Shown piece by piece: positions 21,302 to 22,390 of a stretch of DNA of 42,309 bases (position 1 is its first letter; each line of letters begins with the position of its first letter). Both the position numbers and the translations under genes were made by a program. The notes under the pieces are model-generated. The model saw only the letters and a program-made list of their open reading frames with translations. It ran no database searches and was not told the DNA's origin. Source of the stretch: a virus (Duplodnaviria > Heunggongvirae > Uroviricota > Caudoviricetes); the IMG/VR virus record IMGVR_UViG_638341085_000012. One strand, given 5' to 3'.

Positions 21302-21481
21302 ATGAAAAAAGAAGGCCATGGTTTTATCTTGGTTGTTAACTCCATCTCAGAAGCTAAGAACTGGTTTGTGGAAAATGAAATACCTAAGGAAGGCGATGTG
21401 CTAGAGCTGGTAGTTGTTAAAAGCAACATTGAAGGTGAATCATACATGCTTGATCTCAAGTTACAGACAGCTCAAAAATGA
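21302..21481 (+). CDS. Hypothetical small protein, 59 aa
   Basis: [32 protein letters not shown]...; upstream of the protease gene in the AT-rich accessory segment. Confidence 0.35.
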
Positions 21482-21593
21482 TACGGGCCAATTGGTGTAT
21501 TGAATATTCCGGGCGTGAATTGATGTGATATATCAATTATTCTGGGAAATGAGTTCATTATGAAATTCCACTAACCAGAATCGGAGGATTTCA

Positions 21594-22334
21594 ATGCATC
21601 AAAACTTAGCCAACGCAACATTTCAGGTCATTGCAGGTGATTCTCGTGGTAGCGGGTTCAGTTTCATGCGAGAAAACCTAGTTGTAACTAACTTGCATGT
21701 TGTGGCCACCTGTTGTGACTTACAAACCAAGTGTCAAATCAATGACGTCATTCTTCAAACTGAAGCAAATGAGAGTATCGACGCTAAAATTTTGTATGTT
21801 GATGGTAGTAACGACTTTGCTATCATGCAATTGCAATCCCCCCTTCCTGGCGGAAGAACAGTCCTTCAACCATCTGCTGGGTTTGCTCCATCCAGGGGCA
21901 GAAAAGTAATTTTTGCAGGATACCCGCATGGGATACCTCTGTTACTAACAAGTGAGGCAATTATTTCAGCACCGATGGAGCATGGCCGATTTACGCTTGA
22001 TGGAATGGTTAATGGGGGGAACTCAGGAGGACCTATTATTGATCGAGATTCGGGAGAGTTAGTAGGTATCGTCACCCAGCGTAGATATATAATGGGCGAT
22101 CAGGCTGATGCTTTCAGCCAAGAAATAGCCCAACTGCGACAATATCTTTCTTCAGCAAGTCTGCATAGAAGTGTTGAGATCATGGGTGTTAATTTCGGGC
22201 AAATGGCGGACATGTTTGGTAGATCGCTACAGATTGTTTCGGACATGATGTCGCAGAATGCTAACTCCGGAATTGGTATTGGATTTTCAATCCAGCCCAT
22301 CGTTGATGTGATCACATCTTTCCCTACGAAATAA
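21594..22334 (+). CDS. Trypsin-like (S1/chymotrypsin-fold) serine protease domain protein, 246 aa
   Basis: Catalytic triad in canonical order: H in VVTNLHVV, D in NDFAIMQL, S in GNSGGPII; GGAGG 7 nt upstream; own downstream terminator. Confidence 0.7.
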   Translation: MHQNLANATFQVIAGDSRGSGFSFMRENLVVTNLHVVATCCDLQTKCQINDVILQTEANESIDAKILYVDGSNDFAIMQLQSPLPGGRTVLQPSAGFAPSRGRKVIFAGYPHGIPLLLTSEAIISAPMEHGRFTLDGMVNGGNSGGPIIDRDSGELVGIVTQRRYIMGDQADAFSQEIAQLRQYLSSASLHRSVEIMGVNFGQMADMFGRSLQIVSDMMSQNANSGIGIGFSIQPIVDVITSFPTK

Positions 22335-22366
22335 ACATTCGTTGTATAAGATTTTATACATGATAT

Positions 22367-22390
22367 GGCCACGCATATGTGTGGCTTTTT
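22367..22390 (+). terminator. Rho-independent terminator after the protease gene
   Basis: GCCAC-GCATATGT-GTGGC followed by TTTTTATT. Confidence 0.5.

Follow-up and report, generated by a model that had tools for sequence, protein, structure and literature searches.

The 42,309-nt viral sequence IMGVR_UViG_638341085_000012 (the window, meaning this whole stretch of DNA) carries a mobile two-gene accessory cassette of ~1.3 kb (positions 21102-22418) in the slot between the lysis and packaging genes of a P22-like prophage. The cassette encodes a 59-residue protein followed by a 246-residue serine protease of the HtrA/DegS type, and we tentatively propose, with a probability of about 0.38 and from context and analogy, that it might act as a latent protease-based exclusion or abortive-infection module carried by the phage. 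From left to right, the locus comprises the following features:

20964..21101, no strand assigned: conserved left flank of the variable slot, 95-99% identical in >160 phage records, both P22-like and lambda-like
21089..21179, + strand: right-end fragment (~85 nt) of an IS100/IS21-family element, with the last istB codons, the stop and the terminal repeat
21181..21270, + strand: non-functional 3' relic of an o-spanin (Rz-like) gene, which aligns with the end of the lipoprotein gene of locus L097
21302..21481, + strand: 59-residue partner gene, predicted short α-helix plus long β-hairpin, no known family
21482..21593, + strand: conserved spacer of 112 nt, with an inverted repeat, a near-palindrome and the Shine-Dalgarno sequence GGAGG at 21583-21587
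21594..22334, + strand: 246-residue protease gene, cytoplasmic S1C (HtrA/DegS-like) serine protease with H35, D74 and S144 and a hairpin insertion at residues ~166-222
22367..22396, + strand: intrinsic terminator closing the cassette, an 8-bp GC-rich stem at 22367-22386 followed by TTTTATTG
22397..22740, + strand: conserved right flank with the DUF2560 (hkbM) gene at 22498-22740

Both open reading frames (ORFs) lie at the coordinates given in an earlier note that was made from the sequence alone. That note put a stand-alone protease between rha and the small terminase gene terS; rha is indeed found on the left, but the DUF2560 gene intervenes before terS. In RefSeq, the protease is already labelled “S1 family peptidase” and the 59-residue product “hypothetical protein”.

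The protease and its 59-residue partner

The 246-residue protein possesses the full S1-type catalytic triad that had been read from its sequence, with H35 in VVTNLHVV, D74 in NDFAIM and S144 in GNSGGP. The Pfam family Trypsin_2 covers residues 19-159 (E = 2.6e-20), and the family Trypsin also matches (3.1e-08). In an alignment of 48 homologues sharing 40-78% identity with the protease, S144 and D74 are invariant and H35 is kept in at least 90% of the sequences. The two-β-barrel fold, the ordered His/Asp/Ser and the GxSGG motif are those of the S1 chymotrypsin fold. The gene has its own Shine-Dalgarno sequence, the GGAGG of the spacer, 6 nt 5' of the ATG, and is followed by its own terminator with an 8-bp stem and a T-run, both as previously noted.

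The structure predicted by AlphaFold2 from the 48-sequence alignment, with a mean predicted local distance difference test score (pLDDT) of 86.3, consists of β-strands up to residue 163, two α-helices at residues 168-191 and 201-222 (pLDDT 66-77), and a C-terminal β-strand (227-232) and α-helix (234-241). Structural similarity search against the PDB using Foldseek revealed DegS deltaPDZ as the top match (E = 1.4e-12), with alignments that reach the C-terminus of the protease. By sequence, the closest solved relatives are all HtrA, DegP, DegQ or DegS, the match being confined to positions ~16-169, and a family-profile search against the PDB ranked HtrA1 best (4e-14). A search of the viral structures in BFVD returned generic trypsin-fold matches only. 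The motif of the last strand, NANSGIGIGF, is conserved, with N222, A223, N224, G226 and I227 invariant among the 48 homologues. The ~85 C-terminal residues, previously described as of unknown function, are therefore better resolved by the model and the Foldseek alignments into a helical hairpin of ~57 residues inside an HtrA/DegS fold, in addition to the last strand and helix of that fold.

In the model, the hairpin occupies the position of the short L2 loop of HtrA proteins, just before the last barrel strand. In HtrA proteases, the form of the S1 pocket depends on this position, so that a regulatory or recognition role for the hairpin is plausible by analogy. The protease gene is under purifying selection, with an overall ratio of nonsynonymous to synonymous substitution rates (dN/dS) of 0.15. 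The most conserved stretch is the invariant N-terminal MHQxLANATF (90% identity, dN/dS 0.10), and the hairpin is the fastest-evolving part, with 62% identity compared to 77% in the core and a dN/dS of 0.20.

The N-terminus MHQNLANATFQV is polar, and neither the Kyte-Doolittle profile (highest 19-residue mean 1.24) nor the model shows a signal peptide, a hydrophobic segment or a membrane anchor. Pfam and NCBIfam detect no PDZ domain, and the protein stops 5 residues past the C-terminal helix of the fold. Judged by its sequence, the protease is thus a cytoplasmic, PDZ-less enzyme of the S1C type that should be catalytically competent. The virulence-type secreted role that had been entertained for it is unlikely, because it has no export signal.

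A profile search of 1.84 billion representative sequences recovered 58 clusters at 50% identity (E ≤ 1e-30), nearly all of them stand-alone proteins of 235-255 residues. In a second tier of ~255-270 residues the profile match extends through the hairpin and the terminal strand, whereas large multidomain proteins match the protease core only (positions ~13-161) and not the hairpin or terminal region. The hosts include Escherichia, Klebsiella, Citrobacter, Enterobacter, Leclercia, Pantoea, Buttiauxella, Photobacterium, Agarivorans, Salinisphaera and Lysobacter, and full-length relatives are also found in one Bacteroidota genome, one Chloroflexota genome and one haloarchaeal plasmid. We found no description of this protease family in the literature searched.

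Some relatives have surroundings that resemble defence islands. A Limibacterium relative adjoins a KAP P-loop NTPase (L012 7021-9153), a Salinisphaera relative adjoins an HNH_5 nuclease in two contigs (L006 8854-9753), and another relative lies in an integrase/AlpA island at smpB (L185 7498-10707); no partner recurs among them. A scan of genome contigs with the GNSGGP pattern collected mostly generic HtrA genes, only L012 and L013 being informative.

The 59-residue ORF appears to be a real gene from its substitution pattern. Among 16 distinct sequences, the in-frame dN/dS is 0.17, the two shifted frames give 0.77 and 1.05, and the variable sites per codon position number 28/24/48. By tblastn, the gene lies at a fixed offset 5' of the protease in 26 of the 33 IMG/VR viral contigs that carry protease loci, with identities of 41-100%, and its commonest variant is followed by the 246-residue protease in all eight distinct contexts examined. 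A profile search gathered 73 clusters of the 59-residue family, all from Enterobacterales. An impression from a word-indexed search (4 clusters) that the ORF is restricted to E. coli and not a partner was overturned by the tblastn and profile searches. Hence, the description of the protease as stand-alone needs qualifying, as in the clade of enterobacterial prophages it comes with a conserved small gene.

The 59-residue protein was predicted by AlphaFold2 (pLDDT 88) to fold into a short α-helix and a long β-hairpin. It has no match in Pfam, PHROG, PADLOC or NCBIfam, and a fold search against the PDB gave nothing better than E = 0.7. The alleles of the two genes have re-assorted: in L002, identity is 93% for the small gene and 52% for the protease, whereas in L094 it is 64% and 94%, respectively. 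More distant protease relatives are devoid of the 59-residue gene; some have no small neighbour at all, and others have unrelated ones, namely a 74-residue phrog_6978 protein (L004 and L099) or a 77-residue zinc-ribbon-like protein (L185). The 77-residue ORF, which lies 5' of its protease gene, was considered as a homologue of the 59-residue gene, and comparison showed the two to be unrelated.

In a DNA alignment of 16 loci, conservation is higher in the 112-nt spacer than in the coding DNA on either side of it, neighbouring third codon positions included. It contains the inverted repeat AATTGAT-N7-ATCAATT (21518-21524 and 21532-21538) and the near-palindrome ATGAGTTCAT at 21549-21558, for which most relatives have ATGAATTCAT. 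A conserved RNA fold was rejected, given an RNAalifold energy of -7.2 kcal/mol to which covariation contributed -0.2, compensatory changes in 1 of 23 pairs and a single-sequence z-score of -1.8. The candidate roles of the spacer are an operator, a promoter or a translational signal.

Slot, mobility and history of the cassette

Homology to phage CUS-3 breaks off at 21101 and is regained at 22419, two points separated by just 10 bp in CUS-3; homology to Sf6 and Huey ends at 21088 and resumes at 22397, with gene 66 in that slot. Other cargo in the slot includes a GIY-YIG nuclease in epsilon34 and DUF551 in other prophages. This comparison of the rha-terS interval bears out the earlier view of the position as a site for accessory cargo. 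In PHROGs, the slot genes of Huey (L010 1670-2050) and Sf6 (gene 66, L008 1668-2048) match only families of unknown function (phrog_322), and the label “anti-CRISPR protein” in the Huey record looks unsupported from this comparison.

The base composition of the cassette deviates from that of its neighbours, as in morons. The G+C content is 0.420 in the cassette region compared to 0.470 in the window, the 8th percentile of windows of equal size, and the G+C content at third codon positions is 0.385 compared to 0.49-0.54 in rha, terS and the large terminase gene terL. The noted AT-richness is thus real but modest, since rha itself has a G+C content of only 0.435.

The left end of the cassette is an IS100/spanin scar. 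The IS100 fragment is 94% identical to IS100 ends on 1,843 plasmid records, which explains the thousands of multicopy and plasmid matches in the E. coli search, and its first 13 nt overlap the phage flank in a microhomology junction. At the IS100 end, an outward TTGATA (21176-21181; TTGACA in intact IS100) faces the cassette, with no good -10 element after it. The spanin relic, listed as part of the ORF 21154..21270, represents the last ~28 codons of a gene from a lysis cassette other than that of the window, the spanin genes of which lie upstream at ~19607-20074. Its intact counterpart is an 81-residue lipoprotein gene (L097:5433-5678; phrog_1275, E = 3.6e-27). In loci with an intact spanin, such as L097, 30 nt separate the o-spanin stop from the start of the 59-residue gene, and the two genes share one strand. 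Twenty loci that have the E. coli lambdoid flank carry the identical scar, and it is missing where the spanin is intact. The shared scar indicates, at the level of sequence, a single IS100-associated capture followed by spread through the conserved flanks, with re-assortment of the two genes.

The prophage backbones around the cassette include those with a lambda-type Nu1/GpA terminase, with P22 gp3/Terminase_6 and of the PBSX type, in addition to degraded remnants, in two of which (L173 and L177) the cassette persists. In ~15 of 21 backbones, the protease stop is followed by a hairpin with a T-run, the stem sequences of which differ. This marks the terminator as a maintained feature and implies that transcription by non-antiterminated polymerase matters.

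The cassette is rare and patchy in E. coli, being near full length in ~20 of 5,426 complete genomes, and its occurrence in the 33 viral contigs of IMG/VR ties it strongly to mobile elements. The commonest variant of the small gene occurs in 1,181 indexed blocks of the assembly collection. Among 50,697 deposited phage records, tblastn did not find this protease except for one match of 33%, and megablast matched only the flanks and not the cassette. The proviral contig L092 (IMGVR_UViG_2588253749_000007, 42,033 bp) shows 100% identity to the window across rha, the two cassette genes, DUF2560 and terS. The closest complete genome is that of E. coli O25:NM 2014EL-1343-2 (L001), with an identity of 98.6%, where the prophage adjoins dsdC/torI.

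Two further observations concern the surroundings. Lambda-type prophages with the cassette (L171-L176, ~195-1211, minus strand) encode a 331-residue SDH_protease (PF01972) between the Q antiterminator and the holin, a second accessory protease in the same cassette-bearing prophages. In the conserved left flank of the window, a terminator-like hairpin with a T-run lies on the minus strand at 21053-21032, where no minus-strand gene ends.

Proposed function and its alternatives

The earlier note suggested a defence or abortive-infection effector, which is a plausible hypothesis drawn from context and analogy. In defence systems, proteases of the trypsin type recur as effectors or as activators of latent effectors (10.1101/2025.11.14.688446; PMC7736814). 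We favour a latent module of exclusion or abortive infection because of the moron-like anatomy with its maintained terminator, the hotspot slot, the mobility between backbones, the persistence in remnants, the occurrence in islands and chromosomes, and the position of the loop insertion, which in the model may be well placed to gate the active site. The intact catalytic residues, the purifying selection on the protease gene and the retron type XI protease domain as best PADLOC match also speak in its favour. Moreover, the relatives outside phages (the smpB island, the neighbours of a KAP NTPase and an HNH nuclease, and the archaeal plasmid) fit a cell-autonomous function better than a step in virion production.

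HtrA proteases are switched on allosterically. In an uninfected lysogen, the cassette protease would be kept in an inactive state by the hairpin, positioned across the L2/S1-pocket region, by the 59-residue protein, or by both. A cue from a superinfecting phage would then switch the protease on, and the active enzyme would cleave a phage or host target, possibly also the 59-residue protein. Such cleavage would block the growth of the competitor, resulting in exclusion or abortive infection.

Several results weigh against this proposal. The dN/dS values give no sign of diversifying selection, and the independent recombination of the two genes argues against a tightly co-evolving pair of inhibitor and enzyme. 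No recognisable sensor domain or known effector partner was found at the cassette using Pfam, PADLOC, NCBIfam and the AlphaFold2 model. The best PADLOC match of the protease is RT-Protease_XI of retron type XI (3e-15, residues 14-184), followed by weaker matches to PDC-M35A and LmuA, all of them at the generic protease domain and no stronger than the matches to Pfam Trypsin_2 or to MarP/HtrA models. One relative follows nadD within a group of housekeeping genes, a setting that would also suit an ordinary physiological protease. On the + strand, no consensus sigma-70 promoter precedes either gene, the weak candidates being TTGATA-17-TCGCAT at the IS100 end and TTGAAG-17-CATAAA. In addition, the ancestral arrangement starts the cassette in the late operon, and the 30-nt distance from the o-spanin gene on the same strand implies that the cassette is at least co-transcribed late.

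Two links to known defence systems were considered and rejected. A retron or other noncoding RNA is not supported, as Rfam is blank over 20000-23000 and no reverse transcriptase is present in the protein or annotated in the near-identical prophage of L001. A link to nucleoid-associated-protein (PANGU) defence was dropped, as the PANGU paper names no protease effectors.

The lack of a detected promoter and the ancestral late-operon position make a late function serving the phage a serious rival, although we consider it rather unlikely. Expression of the pair would coincide with that of the late lysis and packaging genes, and the protease would degrade an immune or stress protein of the host, or a protein of a competitor, for the benefit of the phage's own burst. 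Consistent with this, no terminator separates the o-spanin and 59-residue genes in loci with an intact lysis cassette, and the position after the lysis genes recurs across unrelated phages, a Pantoea prophage included. The anti-CRISPR label of the Huey slot gene points in the same direction, though PHROGs does not support it. However, relatives in non-phage chromosomal contexts and integrative islands would be unusual for anti-defence genes, and a maintained terminator is needless for a gene read by antiterminated late transcription only. Persistence of the cassette in the degraded remnants, and its absence from every isolated phage genome in the collection, also argue against this role.

An ordinary proteolytic or quality-control enzyme, or one that takes part in lysis or assembly of the phage itself, hitch-hiking in a permissive slot, is less probable again. 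The closest relatives in sequence and structure are the housekeeping proteases HtrA, DegS, DegQ and MarP, the nadD-linked relative lies in a core-gene cluster, and the cassette consistently adjoins lysis genes. Nevertheless, an enzyme devoid of PDZ domain, signal peptide and membrane anchor cannot do the periplasmic job of HtrA, and its rarity in E. coli and its tie to mobile elements are at odds with housekeeping. Capsids of P22-like phages mature without a protease, and the gene is absent from Sf6, CUS-3 and the deposited phages.

A sensor-less minimal immune module is a more speculative possibility still, and we give it little credence. Here the hairpin itself would recognise a phage product and free the active site, and the 59-residue protein would be a latent effector, cut for example at the invariant N-E-I-P-x-E-G loop before its amphipathic hairpin to release a membrane-active or toxic fragment. 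If true, the large Avs/Hachiman protease-effector systems would have a counterpart of only two genes and 305 codons.

Least likely of these is addiction of the toxin-antitoxin kind, in which the protease would be the toxin and the 59-residue protein its labile antitoxin or inhibitor; such a pair would stabilise the prophage and might also fire on infection. The order of small gene and enzyme is strictly linked in the enterobacterial clade, the spacer palindromes could be operators, and ietAS, as cited in PMC13069673, offers a precedent for a serine-protease toxin. By contrast, type II toxin-antitoxin genes usually overlap or are tightly coupled and the cassette genes are 112 nt apart, the alleles are freely re-assorted without co-variation, many members of the protease family have no 59-residue gene or an unrelated small neighbour, and the helix and β-hairpin of the 59-residue protein match neither a DNA-binding fold nor any family.

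A virion maturation protease can be dismissed: homology searches found the gene neither in Sf6, CUS-3 or epsilon34 nor, apart from the single 33% match, in the deposited phages, and it lies outside the head module, accompanies three packaging systems and has non-phage relatives.

If the cassette is indeed a latent module of exclusion or abortive infection, it would be among the smallest protease-based systems, with a bare HtrA-type domain made signal-responsive by a loop insertion and not by a PDZ domain or STAND sensor, and it is sufficiently common in prophages of E. coli to influence the host range of phages. Even without a defence role, the locus shows the movement of cargo between unrelated lambdoid backbones; should it yield no phenotype, it would be one more uncharacterised pair of accessory genes.

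Comparison with known systems

Compared to HtrA, DegS, DegP and DegQ (MEROPS S1C), the cassette protease shares the two-barrel fold, the His-Asp-Ser triad, the GNSGGP motif and the terminal “GIGFxI” strand. It differs in its size of only 246 residues, lacks the C-terminal PDZ domain and the export signal or membrane anchor of canonical HtrA proteins, and has a 57-residue hairpin in place of their short L2 loop. Canonical HtrA proteins are trimer-based oligomers with allosteric activation through loops; the prediction for the cassette protease covers the monomer. The invariant MHQxLANATF, the carriage by prophages and the 59-residue partner gene further set it apart.

Retrons of type XI are fusions of reverse transcriptase and protease (PMC7736814). 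In contrast, the cassette protein is a protease only and has no N-terminal reverse transcriptase; the PADLOC alignment spans profile positions 345-503 of 506.

In the protease-effector modules, trypsin-like proteases linked to Avs2, Hachiman or retrons are found with MBL, alpha/beta-hydrolase, Pepco or EACC1 effectors (10.1101/2025.11.14.688446). The cassette likewise has a trypsin-like protease in a mobile, conflict-associated context, and by analogy the small neighbouring protein might conceivably serve as the cleaved effector. It differs in having no fused or adjacent sensor (STAND, helicase or reverse transcriptase), no domain beyond the protease, and a 59-residue protein that belongs to no known effector family in Pfam or PADLOC.

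The resemblance to Lit of the e14 prophage is a functional analogy only. Lit is a latent protease that is activated by a product of a superinfecting phage, cleaves an essential host protein and aborts the infection; it is a zinc metalloprotease, and the cassette protease has no relation to it in sequence or fold.

Lambdoid morons are defined by an independent promoter, which was not found upstream of the two cassette genes, and the left end of the cassette is an IS100/spanin scar. Nevertheless, the cassette shares with morons a clean insertion between genes that are otherwise adjacent, as in CUS-3, a deviant composition, its own maintained terminator and a slot for alternative cargo. Altogether, the cassette places a so far uncharacterised version of a familiar enzyme type in a phage accessory slot of a familiar kind.

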